A stretch of 64,000 bases of DNA from Torpedo marmorata. Its lineage: Eukaryota. The notes under the pieces were generated by a model. It was not told the origin of the DNA and did no database searches. It was given only the letters and a program-made list of their open reading frames with translations. Both the position numbers and the translations under genes were made by a program. This document shows positions 43,544 to 64,000 of this stretch, piece after piece. Each line of letters opens with the position of its first letter. Position 1 is the stretch's first letter. The stretch covers positions 64,294,001-64,358,000 of the forward strand of contig OZ360221.1 in NCBI GenBank assembly GCA_977017645.1. Direction: 5' to 3'.

Positions 43544-45997
43544 TCATAAGTTAAATCGTCTGAATTTATGGCTAGGCGGGAGAGGTATTGCTGATCCACC
43601 CATCTGCCATTTCGACACAGGATGGGCCTTCTGAGGTGCTTCGGGATCCTTAGTAGAGTTCAGTGAGTACGCAGGGCACAAATCTCCATCTTTGCCAATA
43701 ATTAGTGACGGTGGAGAGGGAAAATTTGCCATGAAATTAAATGGCCTTTTCAACGTGGACGCTACACCATTGGCTACTCGCTTACGTTTATTTGTACCAG
43801 CAAATTCTTCAAGAGTTTCTTCATGCACATCTGTTTTACCTGTAAGACGCGGATTCTCTGATTTCACAATTGTTTTGACAGACGAGTTTTGCAAAGTATG
43901 TTGTTTCCCCAACACTAAAGTTCTGTAATTCCTTCTTATTCTTGCACCATTTCGAAATTCGTAGTCTTCTAATACTGGAATGTTTAAAGTGCTTTGAAGG
44001 TCTTCGCTTCGTCTGGATGGGTTTTGGGAATTGGTAGTTTTTTCAGTGCACACGTAGCTTTCTTTTGCTTTCGTCGAAAAACACTCTTGCATTTTATTTT
44101 CACTTAAAGTGGTTACTGCTTGCTTCGATACATTGCACGCATACTTGAGTTTCTTTCTAGGTTGTTGGGTCATATATCCATATTCTTCCTCGCAGCTATT
44201 TTCTTCTAGTTTTACTGTAACATTGTGCATAACTGCGTTCCCCATGTCTGCATCGTCACTGTGAATGTGAACGGCAGGCCCCTGACTGCTGTTGGCATTT
44301 AAACTCTGGAAAGCCGAGGACAGTGTGATGAAATTGCTGATTTTCGATTCTTTTTCGACATTTATTGCTAATGGGGAATCATTCTCAAGAGGCTCAGGAA
44401 CTATTGTCACGTTGTTTTCTTCTGCGCAGTGTGATATAGTTGCTCTGAGGCATTTCCTTGACTCTGTTAATGTTCTTTGTTGTGGAAACTCGGTGTTTTC
44501 CTTTGGGCTAGGATCAGGCCCCCCTTCTGTAGCACGGTTAATTGTCGATTCAGTCCTTTTCAGATGTTGTGAAATTTCAGAGTGTGGGAAGGGAAGTTCG
44601 GATATCCTATCGTTATTTATCTCGGCCACACAACTTCCATAGCTAGTTGAGCAGCACACGTTATGTGACTTAATTGTCCAGTTCTGCTCATTTCTCTTCA
44701 CAACAGTCGAGGACTTTAAATTACAATGTGAAATTCTTCCTTCTGGGAGATCGTTGCCGGCTGTTTCATATACCGCACTATTGTTTTTGGCTTGGAACTG
44801 GTAGTGGAAACTGGGCTGCGTTAAGACAAGAGGTTTGCTGCAGATGCTCGAGAAACTGGTACGCCTGAATCGAATGCTTTGAAGTGAAACTTGGCTGGAA
44901 ACGGAGCTAGAATCAGATTCGGACGAGCTGTCTTCATCACTGGCCGATGTTACGTCGGATGATTCGGACACGGTGTCCTCTTCTTCCTCGTCGGAAGAAA
45001 CCGAGTTGCTGGAACTCGACAAACTTGACCCAAAGTCCGAGTCGTTGAGTGCGCGATCAGAGAAGGAGCTCGACTCGGAATCGCTGCTCCAGCTTTCCTG
45101 CAGGGGCCCCTGGTTACAATGCAGTCCGTTGGCAAGATGACATTTATTCAAGCATTCATCCCCTCCTTTAGTTTTGTAAGATTTAGGAGAAGCTGCCGCC
45201 AGTAAGACTCGCTTGGCAGTGCTTGAACTCCCCGAATGTTTCTGAGTGATTTCACACGAACTTTTGCGCCTGAAATAATATGTTAACCCGGTAGCATTTG
45301 GAGACTTCGGGTAATAGGCGATGGCGGATTGGTAAAATACGGGATGTCGGCAAATCATGCTCCGAAATAAGGAGTGATTGGTGTGAAATGCTACACAGTT
45401 ACTTGATATTTCAGCGGTTTCGTAGTTTTGAGGGGCTTTGCAATGCGACCGGATCATTTCTGTGTAACTGTGGCTGGTAAATTTGCTGTAAAATTGAGGT
45501 AGATTGGAAGCCGGTAGCGAGCTACCGCCTCCTTGTAAACTCCTGTTAATTCCAGTCAAAGGCTGCGGCTTTCCATTCATACTCAACCAAACTTTGTTCT
45601 CTTTCAAAAAACTCGCGTAGCGATCGGTGGGGGCTTTCTCGGGTTTGAGCCCCGTTGACAACAATGTTCCATTTATTTTTCTCCTCTTGGTCCTGAGAAC
45701 ACGTTCGGTTTTGCATGAAGTGTACAGGGCTTCCACGTCTTCCCGAGAAATTAGAGTGCATTTAGCTGCATGAAAAGCAATAGAATTTATTGCCTTGAGT
45801 TTTCGCAATTCTTCCAAATCGCAGTGATGTTTCTTCACGTTTAGATGGTCCATCCTTTTGTGTACTGTAGTCCTGGGTATATTTTTCAGCAGATTAGTGA
45901 ATACTTGAGAAAGCGCAAACATTTGTTTCCCCTTAATTATAAGGTAACCAAGTCTCACACCATCCACCTCTTCATAACCCGATTCCAAGTCTCCCAT
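43544..45997 (-). CDS. SKIDA1: SKI/DACH domain-containing protein 1, single coding exon, 817 aa from the conserved Met (ORF open upstream to an ATG at 46066)
   Basis: Translation MGDLESGYEEVDGVRLGYLIIKGKQMFALSQVFTNLLKNIPRTTVHKRMDHL matches the vertebrate SKIDA1 N-terminal SKI/DACH domain. Central SSDSESSS/DSDFGSSLSSSSNSVSS/QSIRFRRTSF block and C-terminal KRPFNFMANFPSPPSLIIG...KWQMGGSAIPLPPSHKFRRF are also present. Divergent neighbour is MLLT10, as in other vertebrates. Confidence 0.97.
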   Translation of the reverse strand: MGDLESGYEEVDGVRLGYLIIKGKQMFALSQVFTNLLKNIPRTTVHKRMDHLNVKKHHCDLEELRKLKAINSIAFHAAKCTLISREDVEALYTSCKTERVLRTKRRKINGTLLSTGLKPEKAPTDRYASFLKENKVWLSMNGKPQPLTGINRSLQGGGSSLPASNLPQFYSKFTSHSYTEMIRSHCKAPQNYETAEISSNCVAFHTNHSLFRSMICRHPVFYQSAIAYYPKSPNATGLTYYFRRKSSCEITQKHSGSSSTAKRVLLAAASPKSYKTKGGDECLNKCHLANGLHCNQGPLQESWSSDSESSSFSDRALNDSDFGSSLSSSSNSVSSDEEEEDTVSESSDVTSASDEDSSSESDSSSVSSQVSLQSIRFRRTSFSSICSKPLVLTQPSFHYQFQAKNNSAVYETAGNDLPEGRISHCNLKSSTVVKRNEQNWTIKSHNVCCSTSYGSCVAEINNDRISELPFPHSEISQHLKRTESTINRATEGGPDPSPKENTEFPQQRTLTESRKCLRATISHCAEENNVTIVPEPLENDSPLAINVEKESKISNFITLSSAFQSLNANSSQGPAVHIHSDDADMGNAVMHNVTVKLEENSCEEEYGYMTQQPRKKLKYACNVSKQAVTTLSENKMQECFSTKAKESYVCTEKTTNSQNPSRRSEDLQSTLNIPVLEDYEFRNGARIRRNYRTLVLGKQHTLQNSSVKTIVKSENPRLTGKTDVHEETLEEFAGTNKRKRVANGVASTLKRPFNFMANFPSPPSLIIGKDGDLCPAYSLNSTKDPEAPQKAHPVSKWQMGGSAIPLPPSHKFRRFNL

Positions 45998-46272
45998 ATC
46001 GACAACTAAATTCTGTCCCACATTCGCTGAAAAAAAACATCGACCGCGAAATTCGACATTCCTCATGGCATCCTGTTTGAAAACACATATAATTATTCTT
46101 TCTGATACAGTTGATTTAAAAAAAAACTTTGGGATTATATTTAATACATAGCATATGGCATTGTAATGAATATAAATTAAAAAGCAGCATCACATGTTAT
46201 TTATATGCAGCGCAATTTCCACAGTATGCGTATTGCTATACCTGCAGTCCTTTAATTGTTCCAAATGAATAC

Positions 46273-53149: not shown

Positions 53150-53660
53150 AGCCTGGTTCACGTGGGTAACGATAGGTTGAGTGCGTCACCTTTAACCTTC
53201 GCTCGTTCCGGCTTTGGCTCATTTATATACCCACAATGCCCATTCAGTCCATCAATGAGCGCGCGAGCGAAAAAAAAAAGCAGAGCCACCGGAAGCTGGA
53301 GTCGGCATTTCAGCCTAGTGTTTTGGAATGGCTGAGCCAAAGGTCGAAACCGAGCAGCGGATTGGTTCATGAGCTGTCAGTCATTCAGACATTCCAAAAA
53401 AACCCACACAACCCCCCCCTCCCCCTCCACACTCATACACACGCACGCAAACAAACAGACATGGCTCGCGCAGTTTCCGTTATCAGCTTCAGTTGCGCGT
53501 GAAACATTCTCGCGCACCTTCCCACTGTTTCCCCCACCCCCCCCCCCCAACATTGGCCGTTTGAATTTCGCAGCCCTCGTGGGCTGTCAATGCGCCTGCT
53601 CGGCAGCCCGAGCCCCGGCTGCGTGAGTGTGTGCGCGCGCTGGCGGGCCCCCCGTCAGAA
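53150..53660. promoter_or_regulatory. CpG-rich promoter region of MLLT10 with a probable upstream exon ending at 53622
   Basis: High CpG/GC, ATTGG (CCAAT) boxes near 53361 and 53552, CTGTCA motifs, minus-strand TATATAAA near 53222-53229, donor-like gc|gtgagt at 53622/53623, 121 nt before the coding-exon acceptor. Confidence 0.7.
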
Positions 53661-53743: not shown

Positions 53744-53888
53744 ATGGTTTCGAGTGGACTTCCGGCTGACTTTTCAAATATGAAGGAGATGATTGGCGGC
53801 TGTTGCGTATGCTCAGACGAGAGAGGCTGGGCTGAGAACCCCCTAGTTTACTGTGACGGACACGGTTGTAACGTTGCCGTTCATCAAG
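53744..53888 (+). CDS. MLLT10: MLLT10 (AF10) first coding exon, start of the PHD finger of the PZP domain
   Basis: Pyrimidine tract + tag|ATG; encodes MVSSGLPADFSNMKEMIGGCCVCSDERGWAENPLVYCDGHGCNVAVHQ; donor AAG|gtaatt; 145 nt, phase 1. The MVSS start, MKEMIGG and linkage to SKIDA1 favour MLLT10 over MLLT6. Not in the ORF track. Confidence 0.96.
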
Positions 53889-56559
53889 GTAATTTTTAGC
53901 AGAAGCAGCAGCATCAGGACAGACCTCTGGCCTCGTTTCAGGCTGAAGCCTCGATGGAGGCCCGGCCCCGTACTGACTTTCTTCAATACATTTTTTAGGC
54001 CTTAAAAGGTCTGATCTAAGTGTTCTTTTAAAATGAACAGAAACTGGAATTATGCAATGTATTTCGTACAATGATTAATTTACAGGTGAATTGTTGTCCG
54101 TCATTGTTCGCAGCACCTGTACAGTTAATCATAAAATGTCCCATTTCATGATAAGGACTAACTTCCTGGAATCTATGTGGAGCTGTTTTAATGAAATGGT
54201 TATAATTCTTAATAAAAATAAAATGTAATTCAAATTGGCACACTAAAGCATTCAATTTTTATCTCGGAATATATGATTATACGTATGGCTCTGCCCGTGT
54301 GTGCATAATCACGATGTACACGTTTTTTTGTTTATTTTTAAGATTACACAAATTCATCGTTGTAAAGCATACAGGGGTATGGTTGTTGTTTTGGCTTGAG
54401 TATATCAATTAGTCTACATTTTGATCGAGATATACCTGCATGTGTGTATGCATCTATATTGATGTTTCTATGGACGTCTTTTTTTCTGGATTCCCGTTTA
54501 TCAAGTTTGATAGTGTTGTCAGATCCTCATTTGTTTTTATTTATGTCCATATGTTTATGTGAGTGAGACTACATGCTTGTGCATATCTGTACACATCTAA
54601 TTTTTAGTATGTGCATATAGATCCTTATCTATTCATGTTTATTTCAAATTATGTGATTGAATATACATTTTGCACATGTTTCAATGTAGTTGTGAATATG
54701 TGTCTGGGCAAGAGTGTATGGTATGTATGTGTGCATCCATATGTTTGCATATTTACAGAAAAAAAATGGAATAGATGACAGCAGACAGATGAGCAAACTA
54801 GACAAAAAGTGAAGTAGTCCTGAAAATGTATTACTCCCAAATGAATTTAGATTTGAACAATTCCTCCACGGAATTCAACGATAGAACATGCTGTTCAACT
54901 CTAATGAAGTTGTGAGGAGGAAGGTCAAGAAAGGGTTAAGGGATTCAATTTTATGGAGGCAAAAAAAAGTTTCTGTAGCCACAGATTGATTTTAGGATGG
55001 TGTATTAATTTTCTGATGCCAGATTTGGGTATGCCATTAAACAGTTATGCACGAGAAAGAGTTAAAATAAGAGTGTAGTATAGATGATTGTGTCTCTGAA
55101 GAATTGAGGTGGTTGTGAAGACCTTGCATTAGTTCCTTGTTCTAAAACAGGCCCCTTTTTTCCCCTCGTAATCCTCTTGTTCACGTAGTGAAATAGTTAA
55201 CCTGTGAGGAATTGGAAGGCATCAGTCTGGTTCATAATGAATTCCTTTACATAAAAGTCATATGATAGACATTGTGGTTGAGGAGGAGTGTGAAATATTG
55301 AATGAGAAAGAAACAAGGAGTTTACCATTTTTCAAAGTAGATAAATTGCCAGATCTGATGAAATCGATCCCAAGCTATACAAATACACAATGTTACAAAT
55401 TGTAAAGGTTTTTGCTATCAATTTCCAATCCTCTTTGCCTACAGGTTTAGTGTTAGATGACTGGAAGATTTCTATCCTGGTATAGTAAAACACTAATAAT
55501 CTACCCTTATTATTTGGAAATCCCAACTGTTCAGCATCTGGTTTAGCAGGACCCATGCCCACACTCAATGGGCCCCTGTTCACTGGAAAACTTATTGTAT
55601 TGTTGCGTAACATCTTTTTGAAAAACAAGTGAATTAAAAGTTTGTTTAATAACATGCAAAATTTGGAATTTCTGCCAGTCTACGTCCAAAGCCCCAAGCA
55701 TGCCAGATTGTTGGAGTTTTATTTTATTGTGATGTTTGCAACAATGGAAAAAGGAATAGACAGGTTAGTCAGCATGGAGGTGAGCAACCTTTTGAGAAAA
55801 AATAAGGAAGAATATTTAGAAACACACCTATTACCGGTAATCATAGATTTGTACATGTCTGTATTAATCATGGGGGTTAATATTTGTGTAACATGTGTAT
55901 CTGCATCTCTGTATTAAATTATTTATCCATGTTTTCAAATTCATCCCACCACAGGAAATTTTACTTTAACTCTATAATATACCTTTTAATTCATCTAGTG
56001 CTGTTTGATCTTTGGGATTTTGGGTTGTGGGAATTTGCATAATTTCCATATAAGCTTTTACGTAACTTGAGTGTTAATTTTGTTCATTTATAAATGTGCT
56101 TTACCACCCCTCTACGATTTTGCTTTCTTTCATTATGCTCTTTGCAGACCTCTTCCTCGTATTATGCATTCTTTAATTTCACCTCTTGGATAATCAGCTC
56201 TTTCAGACACATTTTGAATACTTAAGTACTCCTCAACCCTCCTACTCTCCTGCCACTATCACATACTTGACTCTTTCTTGGGTAAGCCTGTGTATTTCCT
56301 CTGTTTCTCATAGCATCCTCTTAACGGGATCGTTAAAGCAGTTGTGATTGCTTCATTATGAAGAGTAAAATTATTTGCTCCATCCTACCAGAATCATCAT
56401 TAACTTGTAGCTTTGAGTTTATTGCTGGTGATTGCATTGACATCCTGGTCATGATAGAAACTGGGTGAACCTCTGCTTCGTATCTGAATATAATAAAGCC
56501 TCTCTCACCAAGATATCTGCTGCTGTTTTCCTTTCAACCTTTTCATCTTGGCTAAAGGT

Positions 56560-57690
56560 AGACTAAGTGGTGGGACCAGATGGCGTAAACCTGAGGTTTT
56601 TTAAGGAGGTGGTTGCAAAGATAGTGGACCCATTGGTTGAAATTTCTAAACTCTGGGAGGGTACCAGGAGATTGGAAAACAGCCAAAAAGGAAGGAAATC
56701 AGAAGGCCTGTTAATTTCACATCCATTGTTGGCAAGATGCTAGAGTCAATAATCAAAGAGGAAATAACCAATCATTTAGGAAAGGTGAATGTAATCGAAC
56801 CTAGTCAACACGATTTTATGACAGGTAAATCATGGTTGACAAGTTTGTACAATTTCTTTGAAGATGTGACAGTTGATGGAAGGGAACCTGTAGATGTGCA
56901 ATGTGTTTAAATTTCCAAAAGGCATTTGAAAAGGTGCCACATAATAGGTTGGGGCATGAATTAAAAGGTCAAGGCATTGGAGGAAATATGTTAACATGGA
57001 TTTAAAACTGGGTGGGTTCTTTACAGGCAGGAGGGATGAAACTAATGGGGTACTTCAGGGATCCTTTCTTGGCCTTCACTTGTTTACTATTTACATTAAT
57101 GACCTAGAGAAGAGAAAAAAAATGTAAGGTTTCAATGTTTGATGATATGAAAATGGGTGAAAGGGCTTGTTGAGATGTGAATGTTGTGATTCTGCAATGC
57201 AATGTAGATAGATTATTTCTCAAAAAATGGTTCCTGATCCGAATAGTGACTGTCCATTTCTTTCCCTGTATCGTGCCTGATCCTCATTATTTGTTAAGAT
57301 TCCAGCATTTACAGTTCATGTGTTTCCCTGGGTAGACTGATAAAACTTCTGGCAAATGGAGTTTAAGGAGGACAAGATGTAAGGAGAGAAGAATCAAAAG
57401 GTGGATTATTAACTGAATGGAGTGAAACTGAAAATGAGTGAAGATCAGAGGGATCTGGATGTTCTTTTGCATGAATCACCAAATGTTAGCAGTCTGGTCC
57501 AACAAATATTTAAGAAGGCAAATGGTATGTTGGCTTCTATTGTGAATGGGTCAGAGTTTAAGAATAGGGAGGTTTTGTTTTGCATTTGTCCATGCTTTTG
57601 GCAAGGCCACACCAGGAATAGCATTGGAAGCAATCTAAAGAGATTCACCAGTTTAATTCCTGGAATGACAGGATTCTTATTATCATATTG
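56560..57690 (+). mobile_element. Decayed CR1 RT fragment in an MLLT10 intron
   Basis: DWKTA, SIVGKMLESII, FQKAFEKVPH, FTIYINDLE, KKANGMLASI remnants. Confidence 0.8.
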
Positions 57691-59394
57691 GACTCAAAAT
57701 ACATTTTTGACCATATTTCTTTAAGACTAAGATAATGCTTCTAAAATTCTCATTTGTACTTTTTATTGTAAAGACCAAATTTGAGTGCTGGATAGCTGCC
57801 TTTGTTCTGTTATAGTTGAGGTAATCTAAAACTTGATCTGAATTCTAACTAATCCCATTCACTTATCCCTGTGCTGTTGAGATAAATTGGCTTTCGGTTG
57901 AGCAACATTTTAATTTTTCATTAAGTTCTCATCATTATTTTGAATTTCTTTGTGGCCTTGCTATTTTCCATTTTTGTAATTTCCTCCTCCACTGATTTCT
58001 CTTGACCATCCCCATATTTTATTCTCCAATAGAACAGAATTGAAACTTTCTCCCAAAACCTTTCCACCTCTTTTTCCTTTCTTCCTCCTTGACCAATACC
58101 TTCGTCAATTGCCCCAATATCTTCTAATATGGCTCAATCAAATTTTGTTTGATGACATTCCTAAAGCTTTTTTCACTAGTGTTTCAGAATTTAATTTCAG
58201 GATGATCAAGAGGCAGAACTGAAAGAGTGTTTCAGAACTGAAAGTGATGATTTGTAGGACAGCATTTTACAGAGGTAAGAAGGGGGGGAAGCAGTGGAGT
58301 GATCTGGAGATGAAAGTGAGTGTTTTAACTTTTAAATATTGCTTAACTGGCTGGCAATTTAGGTGAGCAAATGTATGGGGGAAAAGGGATATCTTGCAAT
58401 TTAGATTATGGCCAGAGTTGTCGTATTTACTGTTGGAATGGTCAAATCAAGAGATAATGCAAAGACCTCATTTGTTTCAGTTGTAGATGCCTTGGGGTAG
58501 TATAGTTCATGTGTAAATATGTTTGTACAATTGTGTTTGAATGTGGGTCTGTATGTATGTGTCTGCATATACTGCATATATGGAGGTGGTTCTGCCTTCC
58601 TTTAAAGAGGTGTGCACAAGCGAGATTTATGTTTATATATTTGGATCCTTTATGCACAAATATGGGGCAATGAGTAGAACATTCTTACCCAGGTTTGTAG
58701 TCCACTCGGGCTGGTTGTCTGCTATTTTGCTTGCATACATTAGTGTGTGATATTTGTGCTGCTTCAAATGTGTGTACATATGCACATTTTATTCCAGAAT
58801 TTTTTCATTGGCATTGCGAACCAGCAATAATTGTAGATATAAATATATTTCTGAATCAGAATAATGTGTGACTTGGATTGGTATCCACAGGAGATACCCA
58901 TAGTGTTCCTATGCACCTGCTACTCTTACCCACTTTGGTAGAGGTCATGTGTTTGGATGGTGTCCTGTTGTTTGGGCATGTTTGACTGCATACTTGTGTA
59001 TAGATCTTTGGTTCTGTACAATAAAGGGTAAATGGCTTTGGTTGTATTTGTGGGCAGGCATATATGTATGCTTGTGCATTTTGATATGAGTTAGCAAAGA
59101 TGTGCTTCTGCCTTGTATTGATGTGTATGTGCCATATTTGGGTATATTTGTTTGTTTGCACACCTGTATAAATATGCACTTAAGTGTGCTTTCCTGGTAC
59201 CTTCAGGTAGTTAAGTACGTATCTACACTCATATATTCTGTAAATCTGCATTTACATGTTTTTTGTGAATCTCTTTTTACATATGCATAATTGCATATGA
59301 CTTCATGTACAAGTGTTTATACATCTAGCTTCATTTCTATGTATTGTAAACATAATTTTAGTGTGTGTTTGTAAGTAAATGAGTGTCTACATGG

Positions 59395-60050
59395 TAAGCG
59401 GTATGGCACTGAGGAGTGCAGTAGAACAGAAGGATCTGGAAATACTTGAAAGTGGCTCACAGGTAGATATGGTCATAAAGAGAGCTTTTGGCACGTTGGC
59501 CAGTTAGGATGTTATGGTGAAGTTGTACAAGACATTGGTGAGGCCACATTTTGAGTATTGTGTCCAATTTGGCCACCTAACTGCAGGAAAGATACAAATA
59601 ATATTGAAAAAGTGCAGAGATTTACAAGGATGTTGCCTGGACTTGAGGAACTGAGTTACATGGAAAAGTTAAACAAGTTAGGACTTTATTCCCTGGAGCA
59701 TTGGAGAATGAGGGGAGATTTGATAGAAATATAAATTATGAGGGGTATATATAGAGTAAATGCCAGCAGGCTTTTTCCACTGAGGTAAAGGGTGAAAGGT
59801 GAGATGTTTAGGGGGAACATTGGGGGGACCTTCTTCACACAGAGTGGTGTGAGTGTGGAATGAGCTGCCAGCTGAAGTGGTGAATGCGGGCTCGATTTTG
59901 ACACATGAAAAATTTGGATAGGTATATGGATGGAAGGGTTATGGAGGGGGCTATGGTACGGGTGCAAATCAACGGGACTAGCTTGAATATTGGTTTGGCA
60001 CAGACTAGGTGGGCCGAAGAGCCTGTTTCTGTGCTCTAGTGTTCTGTGGT
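59395..60050 (+). mobile_element. CR1 3' fragment in an MLLT10 intron
   Basis: LYKTLVRPHFEYCVQF, RGDLIE, FFTQ, tail GGGCCGAAGAGCCTGTTTCTGTGCT. Confidence 0.85.
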
Positions 60051-60911
60051 CTGCAAGGGGGTATCTGTACCCAGTTGGTCCAGTGGTGTTCTAAACCTAA
60101 TGGAATTTATTTCTAACTTGCATCTTTGTAAATTTATTCATTTCTATTTCTGCCTTGTTTCATCTTAGAATTCTGTCTATCTGCCTTTCTTACACATGTC
60201 AGTAATTAGAATAATGTATATTTTGTGAAACACTTGATTTTCTCACACAAGCTATCTTTTTTTTTTAAATGAAAAAGCTAAGAAAATACATTGTTTATCT
60301 CGTATTAGAGTAAATTAGACCAGTAAGGCTGAGGAAAATTCTCTTAAGATTTTTTTGGAATAGTGTATTTAATTTTGAAACCAATTAAAGCTGCAACCAG
60401 TCTGTAATCAATAAATATGAGGGCTTCTCCCTATGCACATTGTTTCAAATAAACTTTCAATGGACATTTTTCCTGCATTAGTTTCAAAATAATTTGAAGT
60501 ATAAATTGTGTTAATATTAACCCTAAAATTTGTGCATTTTGGCTTGAATGTCACTGTTCTGTGAGAAAAGTGCACAATATTCATGGCAGATTCACTGTAT
60601 GAATTTAGGACAATTTATGTAATTGACAAAATTAATTTTGAATAAGAGCTTAAGGTTTAGTCTAAACTTAATGTAGGCTTTAAAATAATTGTTATTTGTG
60701 AATTTGATGTAAATTTGCTTCAAGAAAATTCTACTACAATTTTTGTTGTTTATTAACCAATTGTTGGTAGTAAAATATGTGGTTGGGGAACGATGGTATG
60801 AATTAATAGTGCATGTCCTTGATATGTGTGTAAATGCACAAGAACAAAATATAAACATGAAACTGTACAAGTCAATGAATAGGTTGTTTAGTTTTTCCTT
60901 AGGCTGCCTTT

Positions 60912-61002
60912 ATCTCAAGGTTCCTTTTATTGTCATGTAATAAGACATTCAAAATGTAACATACATTGTATACTTTAACCTTTGCCTGCCATAAGGCAAA
61001 GA
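60912..61002 (-). mobile_element. 3' tail fragment of the non-coding retroposon family of 2240-3058/7467-8320
   Basis: tttattgtcatgtaataagaca...tttgcctgccataaggcaaa matches the ends of both longer copies. Confidence 0.55.
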
Positions 61003-61138
61003 GTAACCTACAAAAGATACGTAAATATTTCACAGAAAAAATTTAATCTGAACTTCACTACAATTTGCTTTTTATTTGTATCGATGTTGACTGGTGAATG
61101 GATGGCCTAAGATATTTTTTTTGCCCTTGCAATTTCAG

Positions 61139-61218
61139 CATGTTATGGCATTGTGCAAGTACCCACTGGACCATGGTTTTGTCGAAAATGTGAATCACAA
61201 GAGAGAGCTGCCCGAGTG
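61139..61218 (+). CDS. MLLT10: MLLT10 second coding exon (PHD finger)
   Basis: tttcag| acceptor; encodes (A)CYGIVQVPTGPWFCRKCESQERAARV; donor GTG|gtgagt; 80 nt, phase-compatible with the previous exon (145+80 = 75 codons). Confidence 0.96.
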
Positions 61219-62476
61219 GTGAGTCCAGCATTTTCTAGTATGTTTCTTACAATGCTTTAAGTATGTCTCCAAAATATATTTAAATGTTTTGCCACAAATT
61301 TCCTTAATTCAGATTTCTAGTATATACAGTTTTTCTTTTTAATGTTCATGATGGTATCTCAGATTTTGAAAATTGGGCTGAATAGAAATTGTAATGCTTT
61401 AATGCTATTGTCAGCAGTTGTTTATGTTTTTGTTTTAAAATGGATTGTGTTCTAATTTCAAATAGCCTGATAATAGCAACAGAATAGCTCTGCAGTCAAA
61501 CGAGTTCCTCATTTTGTAAAACACTACGGACAAAATGATCCACTGGCTTAACAAAGCTGTTGAGATGGCTGGATGTGATCCCTCCCTTCCCCCTTTTTTA
61601 TTATTGCTCACGTGCCTGTTTTGCAGAGAATGTAGATAAAATTCCCCAGTTGTCTGGTGTCGATTGGTCGAGCAATTACATTGCGAGCTCAGTGCCGTCA
61701 TCGTGCTGTGCTTTCAGTACATGATAAGCGGCCTCCCAAGGTGACGAAAATAAAATATGCGGAAGACTATGAGAAATACTGCTATTTGCAGTATTCAGGA
61801 CAGTGCCTGAGCGACAATCACTAAGTTAGGCAGCAAGAGGGAGTTTTTTTATTCCAAAACCAAAGGATCGAGCTCTCAGTACGTTTTCTGATGTGTATGT
61901 TCACTTGTGGTGGTTCTATTTTAGTATTTAAAGAGAAAAACAGTAGATCCAATTTTTAGTCGTTGCCTTCTGTTTTACTTTTTCGTATTTCAACTGGTTG
62001 AGTTTTGATTGTTCTGAGATTGTAAGGATCAGAGTGCTTATTTGCGTCTTCATACAAACGATCCCATTCGGGTGCTGTGTTCTGTAAACGTGGGGGATGG
62101 GAATTGCATATGATTCAGTCACTGTTTTTCAGCAGTTTTTCTGGGATGAAAAAAATGAACATTTTATTTCAGTTGTACTATTTCTGGTTTGACGTTTCTT
62201 GTGTGCTTTGCACAATGTTTGTGTTTGGACTGAAATGCTAAATCAAGTGACGTTTATAGCGTAGCGAACCATGCTAATGTACAACAGTTTGCATACTGAA
62301 TAGGGTGTTATTGAAGTGTATGAGATTGGGCAATTGAATTGAAGCCAATATCAATAAATGACAGGTGATTTAATTTGTGTTGATTAATTTCACTGACAGT
62401 AAAGCTTGGCAATAAATGCCATTAGTTTGTATGTGGTATGGAGTACTGTACTTAACTATTTTTATTTTTTTCCAAG

Positions 62477-62531
62477 AAATGTGAACTTTGCCCTCACAAG
62501 GATGGTGCTCTCAAGAGGACTGATAACTGTG
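62477..62531 (+). CDS. MLLT10: MLLT10 third coding exon (zinc knuckle of PZP); gene continues beyond the window
   Basis: ttttttccaag| acceptor; encodes KCELCPHKDGALKRTDNC(G); donor G|gtaagt; 55 nt, phase 0 start. Confidence 0.95.
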
Positions 62532-63499
62532 GTAAGTATGTTTATATGATAATTAAATCATCCTGTCTTTATGGCAATTTTGTGTTTTTGATTAAAAATT
62601 GTGCAGAGTGTGATTATATTATGAAAATAGGCAATGTTTGCCTGTTAATTGCAGACACTTATGTGAAATATTTTTAAGTCACTTTATTTTAATGGACAGC
62701 ATAATTTAATGGATAAGTATAATTTGTTTGAATGTTAATAATCACATTCAAATTTGAATTTCACTATTTGTTGGTGAGAGCTATGGAAAATTGTTTTGAA
62801 GTTGCAATTGTACGGATACATGCAAATATGGCTTGGTTATTAGGAATATTTGCTGCTTTTGAAGTTGCTGTCCTACTGTTAATATCTAATAAAGTGACAA
62901 ATGTGATTATACTTGGATATGAATGGTATACAGCTTTACACATTATTTTCATATTTTAAGACAGTGATTTTTAAGTGTACTTTCTAAAATGAACTCCATC
63001 TAGTGGTTGTTTGCATGTGAAATGGTTTCTGTGATATTATTTGCATATGGCACTCCATGTGGTTTGTCAGATTACTGTATATGTTTGAAGGATAGCATTA
63101 AGTAGTGCTACTTGTTCAATTTGCTACATGTAAAATTGAATATTGAAATAACTAAAAATATTTTAAATGGGAATCAAATCTAAATTATACTCCAGTCCCT
63201 TTCCAGTTATCATTGGTTTCTGGTAATGAAGTTAAGTTTTTGTTTTGCATTCTTGAATTGTTGTAAGCTACTGAATTGCTGTTTTTTTATTAGGAGAGGT
63301 TTAATATAAATACATGACAGAAGAAAGCAGTGGCCTATAAACCAGGTACATTTTAAACAAGGACATTAAAGAGCTTTTAAAACAATTCAGATGTCACTAT
63401 GTATAGTTACATGATGTAGACTATACTATGACAAGTGTGAGGTGTGAAGTGTAAGTCAAACCAGGGCAGAACTTGTATGGTGAATAGTAAGGCATTAGA

Positions 63500-63825
63500 G
63501 AGTTTTGAAGAACAGAGACCAAGCAGTACTAGTGCATAATTCATTGAAAGTGCAACTTGGGTGGACTAGTTGGTGAAGAAGGAAGAAGGCATTTTTCACT
63601 CTTGCCCCCTCCCCCATGAAGGCCAGAGTGAAAAATGATTCAGCTGTGCAAAGCATTGATGAGACAGCACTTAAATTACTGTGTGCAGCTCTGGTCACCC
63701 AGCTATTGGAAGGACATCAATACATTGGAAGGGGTGCAGAGAAGTCACCAGGATATTGCCAGGACAGTTTGACCAGCATGTACTAGTTGGGTCGAAGGGC
63801 CTGTTCATTGCTGTGTGACTCTGAG
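63500..63825 (+). mobile_element. Decayed CR1 3' fragment
   Basis: attgaaagtg, tgtgtgcagctctggtcacc, ttggaaggggtgcagagaag, tail gggtcgaagggcctgtt. Confidence 0.7.
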
Positions 63826-64000
63826 GAATCTACTTGGAAGACAGAATAATGTTACACAGTGAACTGTTGAAGCAGGTGTCCTCTTATTAAAACAAAGGGA
63901 GCCAAGATTTTGTTTTGGAATCATTATTCAGTAAATTTTACAGTTGTAGGTTTCATGTGTGCAAATGTAACTGAAGGCTGGATCTCTTTCTCTCTCTTCA

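Follow-up and report, generated by a model that had tools for sequence, protein, structure and literature searches.

A candidate poison exon in a CpG-retaining patch of a short MLLT10 intron

RESULTS

Gene content and exon layout of the locus

The sequence of the analysed window, by which we mean the whole 64-kb stretch of DNA, occurs at one place only in the 6.2-Gb genome, as judged by genome search. The gene is MLLT10, as a first, sequence-only reading had named it: the PHD1 and zinc-knuckle exons are in place, a second, MLLT6-like locus exists elsewhere, and upstream lies a minus-strand open reading frame of 881 amino acids (43547-46189) that, by a name and a synteny with MLLT10 which we presume, we take to be SKIDA1. 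AF10 steers H3K79 methylation by DOT1L and is a leukaemia fusion partner. The exons and the other features discussed below are collected in Table 1. The initiating ATG of MLLT10 directly follows an AG acceptor and is itself followed by a second in-frame ATG 36 nt downstream (53744-53782 region, plus strand); a non-coding first exon is therefore probable, with the CpG-rich sequence around 53200-53660 as its likely place. The intron between the second coding exon and the zinc-knuckle exon, which hosts the candidate described here, is short (1.26 kb) and repeat-free, and the exon that comes after the zinc-knuckle exon lies 32.7 kb further downstream, beyond the window.

The same exon layout is found at a paralogous locus, taken as MLLT6 (contig C61:13039500-13079499, minus strand), where the intron at the equivalent position spans 34.6 kb and where the peptide of the 80-nt MLLT10 exon is also found. 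The acceptor of the 55-nt exon is a non-consensus AAG at MLLT10 versus CAG in the paralog.

Table 1. Features of the MLLT10 locus, in window coordinates
Feature	Position	Strand	Remarks
MLLT10 first coding exon	53744-53888	+	145 nt from the ATG; N-terminal half of PHD1; AF10/AF17 homologs found
MLLT10 coding exon	61139-61218	+	80 nt; C-terminal half of PHD1; ends in phase 0 after ...ERAARV; donor GTG/GTGAGT
Single-copy CpG-retaining intronic patch	61500-62300		24 CpG, o/e 0.76
AG-free zone	61565-61624	+	about 61 nt; pyrimidine run 61579-61599, possible distal branch A 61578, CTCAC with A 61610
Candidate poison cassette exon	61627-61740	+	114 nt, bounded by AG...GT; predicted from sequence
In-frame TAG	61633-61635	+	c.232; codon 78 when counted from the first ATG
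AATAAA	61749-61754	+	8 nt past the candidate donor; not above chance
Perfect 8-bp hairpin	61775-61795	+	chance-level
MLLT10 zinc-knuckle exon	62477-62531	+	55 nt; weak AAG acceptor; ortholog skipped in mammalian records

Anatomy of the candidate exon

The intron, flanked by coding exons, contains a sense-strand AG...GT segment that the sequence-only reading had proposed as an NMD-triggering cassette exon, and most of the anatomy it described is borne out. The acceptor TTTTGCAG ends at 61626 (AG at 61625-61626), the 114-nt segment follows, and the donor AAG/GTGACG is at 61740/61741 (GT at 61741-61742). The upstream exon ends in phase 0, inclusion reads AGA ATG TAG in frame, and the TAG lies 105 nt before the end of the segment and hence the next junction, above the 50-55-nt threshold. 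Inclusion would leave introns of 408 and 736 nt. The branch-like GCTCAC is likewise present at 61606-61611. The pyrimidine tract exists as a run of 21 nt that ends at 61599 rather than 61600, and it lies upstream of GCTCAC rather than between the motif and the AG. Therefore, the branch point would be either A 61610 (at -17) with a short tract, or A 61578 (at -49) ahead of the long one.

We also considered a frame-preserving coding exon translated by readthrough: the stop is the third of 38 codons and the remainder is open, but no protein record supports such a product.

Splice signals and local motifs measured against background

When scored with a textbook position weight matrix rather than MaxEntScan, the candidate acceptor is the best of the 70 AGs in the intron (4.9 versus 1.5 for the real downstream acceptor), and the candidate donor ranks second among internal GTs (3.5; real donors score 3.8-5.8). 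In four neighbouring and paralog introns, 79 kb in total, eight other AG-GT pairs score at least as high as the candidate, and three of these eight pseudo-exons have an AG-free zone of at least 40 nt. Dinucleotide shuffling of the host intron produced an equally good pair in 24 of 400 shuffles, a frequency that does not allow for the candidate having been picked from 64 kb. On their own, the splice signals are weak evidence for an exon.

The hairpin that had been singled out past the donor is indeed present, but it does not exceed chance: 11 other such hairpins occur in 74.5 kb (it is one of 12 in 75.8 kb). Together with a 261-nt fold of z -1.21, this frequency led us to reject the hairpin as a signal. 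An Rfam scan of 60500-64000 gave three matches (E 2.4-4.2), all under the gathering score and none on the segment, which, with the same fold score, argues against an intron-hosted structured ncRNA (snoRNA, miRNA or cis-element). None of nine classes of RBP and polyA motifs was enriched (best, 43 of 300 shuffles).

The AATAAA downstream of the donor raises another reading, in which the acceptor is used but the segment is a composite last exon, polyadenylated after the signal at 61749; the mRNA would then be immune to NMD and would encode a 77-aa PHD1-only AF10 peptide. Short PHD1-only AF10 forms do occur in mammalian databases, and a 1998 title in the reference list of PMC3431333 mentions truncated AF10 polypeptides arising via alternative splicing. 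Against this, AATAAA/ATTAAA hexamers number one observed versus 0.6 expected (138 of 300 shuffles), and inspection of the sequence reveals no strong GU-rich element downstream; we regard a composite last exon as highly improbable.

CpG retention marks the patch around the candidate

CpG retention is the strongest signal at the locus, and the patch is probably special. As had been remarked from the sequence, CpG dinucleotides cluster in 61500-62300, with none in 61219-61499, none in 62301-62476 and one in 62532-63600. The o/e ratio around the candidate is the highest among nine pseudo-exon calls (0.26-0.62 for the others); it compares with 0.18 in 55000-61138, upstream of the candidate, and with 0.04-0.47 in the eight other repeat-free intron runs. 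At background ratios of 0.15-0.47, between 4.8 and 14.9 CpG would be expected in place of the 24 seen (Poisson 3e-10 to 0.018, with boundaries set post hoc).

This excess bears on an alternative, namely that the segment is an unconstrained pseudo-exon, spliced at most as noise in the manner of the lineage-specific cryptic exons of the mammalian intron. Equally scoring pairs turn up roughly once in every 10 kb of intron, many unrelated tails follow this donor in mammals, and the hairpin and motifs are at chance level, all of which is what such a pseudo-exon would predict. The CpG count is not, and neither is a repeat-free intron of 1.26 kb, which is short for a 6.2-Gb genome. We therefore consider an unconstrained pseudo-exon unlikely.

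Exon use does not follow from CpG retention, because retention runs 560 nt beyond the donor (o/e 0.79) and a nearby 22.7-kb block has an o/e of 0.80. The block (31001-53743) is devoid of local repeats, has a GC content of 36%, covers SKIDA1 and the MLLT10 promoter, lies 8 kb upstream of the patch and looks like a methylation canyon. Both observations, the first concerning sequence well outside the exon, are compatible with the patch being a non-exonic element in which the AG and GT are incidental: it could belong to the SKIDA1-MLLT10 block as an intronic enhancer or an unmethylated island, or be a splicing control for the skip-prone 55-nt exon. The latter version gains from the skipping of the downstream exon in 11 mammalian records (see below) and from its weak AAG acceptor here, but regulatory flanks usually abut their exon and the 176 nt adjoining the downstream exon contain no CpG. 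It also speaks against a non-exonic element of either kind that the 5' edge of the patch is where the intron has its best acceptor, along with a long AG-free zone; we hold such an element as a tentative but serious possibility.

Repeat coverage, estimated by local self-comparison of 144 kb only, is 1% in the host intron and 53% in the downstream intron. The claim that the patch lacks transposable elements unlike the other introns thus stands for the downstream side, but not for the upstream 7.25-kb intron, which is also low (3%).

Searches for homologous sequence

The suggestion that the exon is possibly ancient finds no support in three comparisons, with the paralog intron, with metagenome loci and with the tails of database proteins. 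Aligned to the 34.6-kb paralog intron, the candidate intron reaches a local score of 28, where 324 background windows average 27.9, i.e. no homology. The donor region matches the paralog intron at 13 of 13 nt; this was considered as a trace of a shared exon and set aside as chance, with the same alignment score of 28 versus 27.9. A metagenome search with the first coding exon recovered 80 loci, which appear to be invertebrate. Both flanking exons were found in 34 of them and 25 of these 34 have an intron of about 70-1,100 nt at the equivalent position, so the intron itself is old; across the 80 loci, no similarity to the candidate intron was detected (best E 0.11).

At the protein level, 50 alternative C-terminal tails compared with all frames of the intron showed no likeness to it (best z 2.4), and the ...ARV-RM product expected from the cassette was absent among the database proteins listed, including the best 120 of 363 and the best 120 of 336. 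These protein-based negatives are weak, since NMD isoforms are seldom deposited as proteins.

Unproductive splicing of MLLT10 on record in mammals

In PMC10123112, Table S2 places three GENCODE NMD poison exons in human MLLT10 within chr10:21827841-21875223 (hg19), at chr10:21830192-21830290, 21846550-21846753 and 21860904-21860955 (99, 204 and 52 nt, respectively), and Table S7 gives two human MLLT10 events, both marked not significant. Human and primate protein records diverge after ...ERAARV. This fits our assumption that the 47-kb interval chr10:21827841-21875223 is the orthologous intron, and the human poison exons probably occupy the same MLLT10 intron as the candidate. Given that human MLLT10 carries annotated poison exons, the idea of poison exons in this gene is a reasonable one.

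A different route is represented by 11 mammalian records that join the PHD exon to the next-but-one exon, skipping the 55-nt exon with a frameshift (mouse AAH69988.1/Q6NSP8, chimpanzee PNI61166.1, porpoise, dingo, goat, beaver and five other assemblies). Their tails match the out-of-frame next exon of the present genome at 19-23 of 37 residues (12 of 16 in one partial record), and some of the records may stem from projected annotation instead of a cDNA of their own. The tails that follow the equivalent donor in mammalian records are many and unrelated to one another, and the short PHD1-only AF10 forms have tails that start from this same position. On the strength of the human poison-exon annotation and the exon-skip records, mammals are already on record as splicing MLLT10 unproductively at this position, via routes without demonstrated homology to the 114-nt segment.

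As for the candidate exon itself, a full-text literature search, with most subscription papers and bioRxiv supplements outside its coverage, found no published title or abstract that deals with it. We found no MLLT10 rows in the supplements of PMC11188260 (one file excluded), PMC7347940 and PMC9882217, the long files of which may be incomplete. In PMC8091538, PMC12026817 and PMC8361881, the MLLT10 rows concern other exons of the gene, and PMC2715136 mentions MLLT10 exon 13 alone.

DISCUSSION

We propose, with a probability of about 0.4, that the 114-nt segment may be a minor poison cassette exon that would divert a fraction of MLLT10 mRNA to NMD and so trim AF10 dosage. The acceptor fits a constrained alternative exon, as do the AG-free zone of 61 nt and the single-copy CpG-retaining patch. 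The original AS-NMD reading keeps its frame logic; its splice scores are matched by eight other pseudo-exons in 79 kb, and the hairpin adds nothing to it.

Mechanistically, the cassette acceptor would compete with the weak downstream AAG acceptor for the upstream donor, which would sometimes be joined to 61627 instead of to the acceptor at 62476. Translation would then end at codon 78, giving a 77-aa product with PHD1 only, and exon-junction complexes downstream of the stop would trigger NMD, resulting in less AF10; either the mRNA would be degraded or the 77-aa product would presumably be unstable. Under this mechanism, CpG retention would reflect purifying selection on splicing-regulatory sequence. 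The TAG follows the first ATG by 231 nt and the second by 195 nt. According to PMC12776119, the start-proximal zone of NMD escape extends over ~200 nt, or over 22-100 codons depending on the gene; the stop thus borders on the ~200-nt zone, in which NMD can be weak.

How does the candidate compare with established poison exons? Like the conserved examples in TRA2B, U2AF2, PTPRA and PHIP (PMC8091538), it is an intronic AG...GT segment between coding exons that has unusual flanks and would introduce a premature stop far ahead of later junctions. For those exons, however, the definition comes from junction reads and from conservation across vertebrates, whereas ours is predicted from sequence. With the annotated human MLLT10 poison exons (PMC10123112), it shares the gene, a stop inside the exon and probably the intron; they differ in that the human exons measure 99, 204 and 52 nt, none of them 114 nt, and reside in a 47-kb rather than a 1.26-kb intron. 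The mammalian skip of the 55-nt exon affects the same gene position and is likewise predicted to end in an early stop after PHD1, but it drops a coding exon while the candidate route would add one.

At best, if real, the candidate would add one more poison exon to a gene for which such exons are annotated already. The class of mechanism is well known, and the exon is a prediction. A bolder version, in which early jawed vertebrates already had the exon, conservation has kept it, and it combines with skipping of the 55-nt exon into a two-way splicing switch (or, alternatively, serves as a PHD1-only terminal exon) that sets the AF10 dose, appears doubtful to us. Should MLLT10 transcripts be diverted to decay at this intron both in mammals and in a cartilaginous-fish-like lineage, be it through homologous or convergent exons, the junction would be an old point of dosage control and a target for splice-switching oligonucleotides.

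Other AG...GT pairs at the locus

Two further, weaker plus-strand pairs are found inside the patch. One combines a tandem CAGCAG acceptor and, at 62365, a good donor, delimiting a segment of 229 or 232 nt (62133/62136-62364) with a stop in frame; the other uses an inner acceptor at 61717, yielding a 23-nt frameshifting segment (61718-61740). In the upstream MLLT10 intron, a plus-strand AG...GT pair bounding a frameshifting segment of 134 nt (56148-56281) outscores the candidate (6.2 and 4.2), with a surrounding CpG o/e of 0.30.
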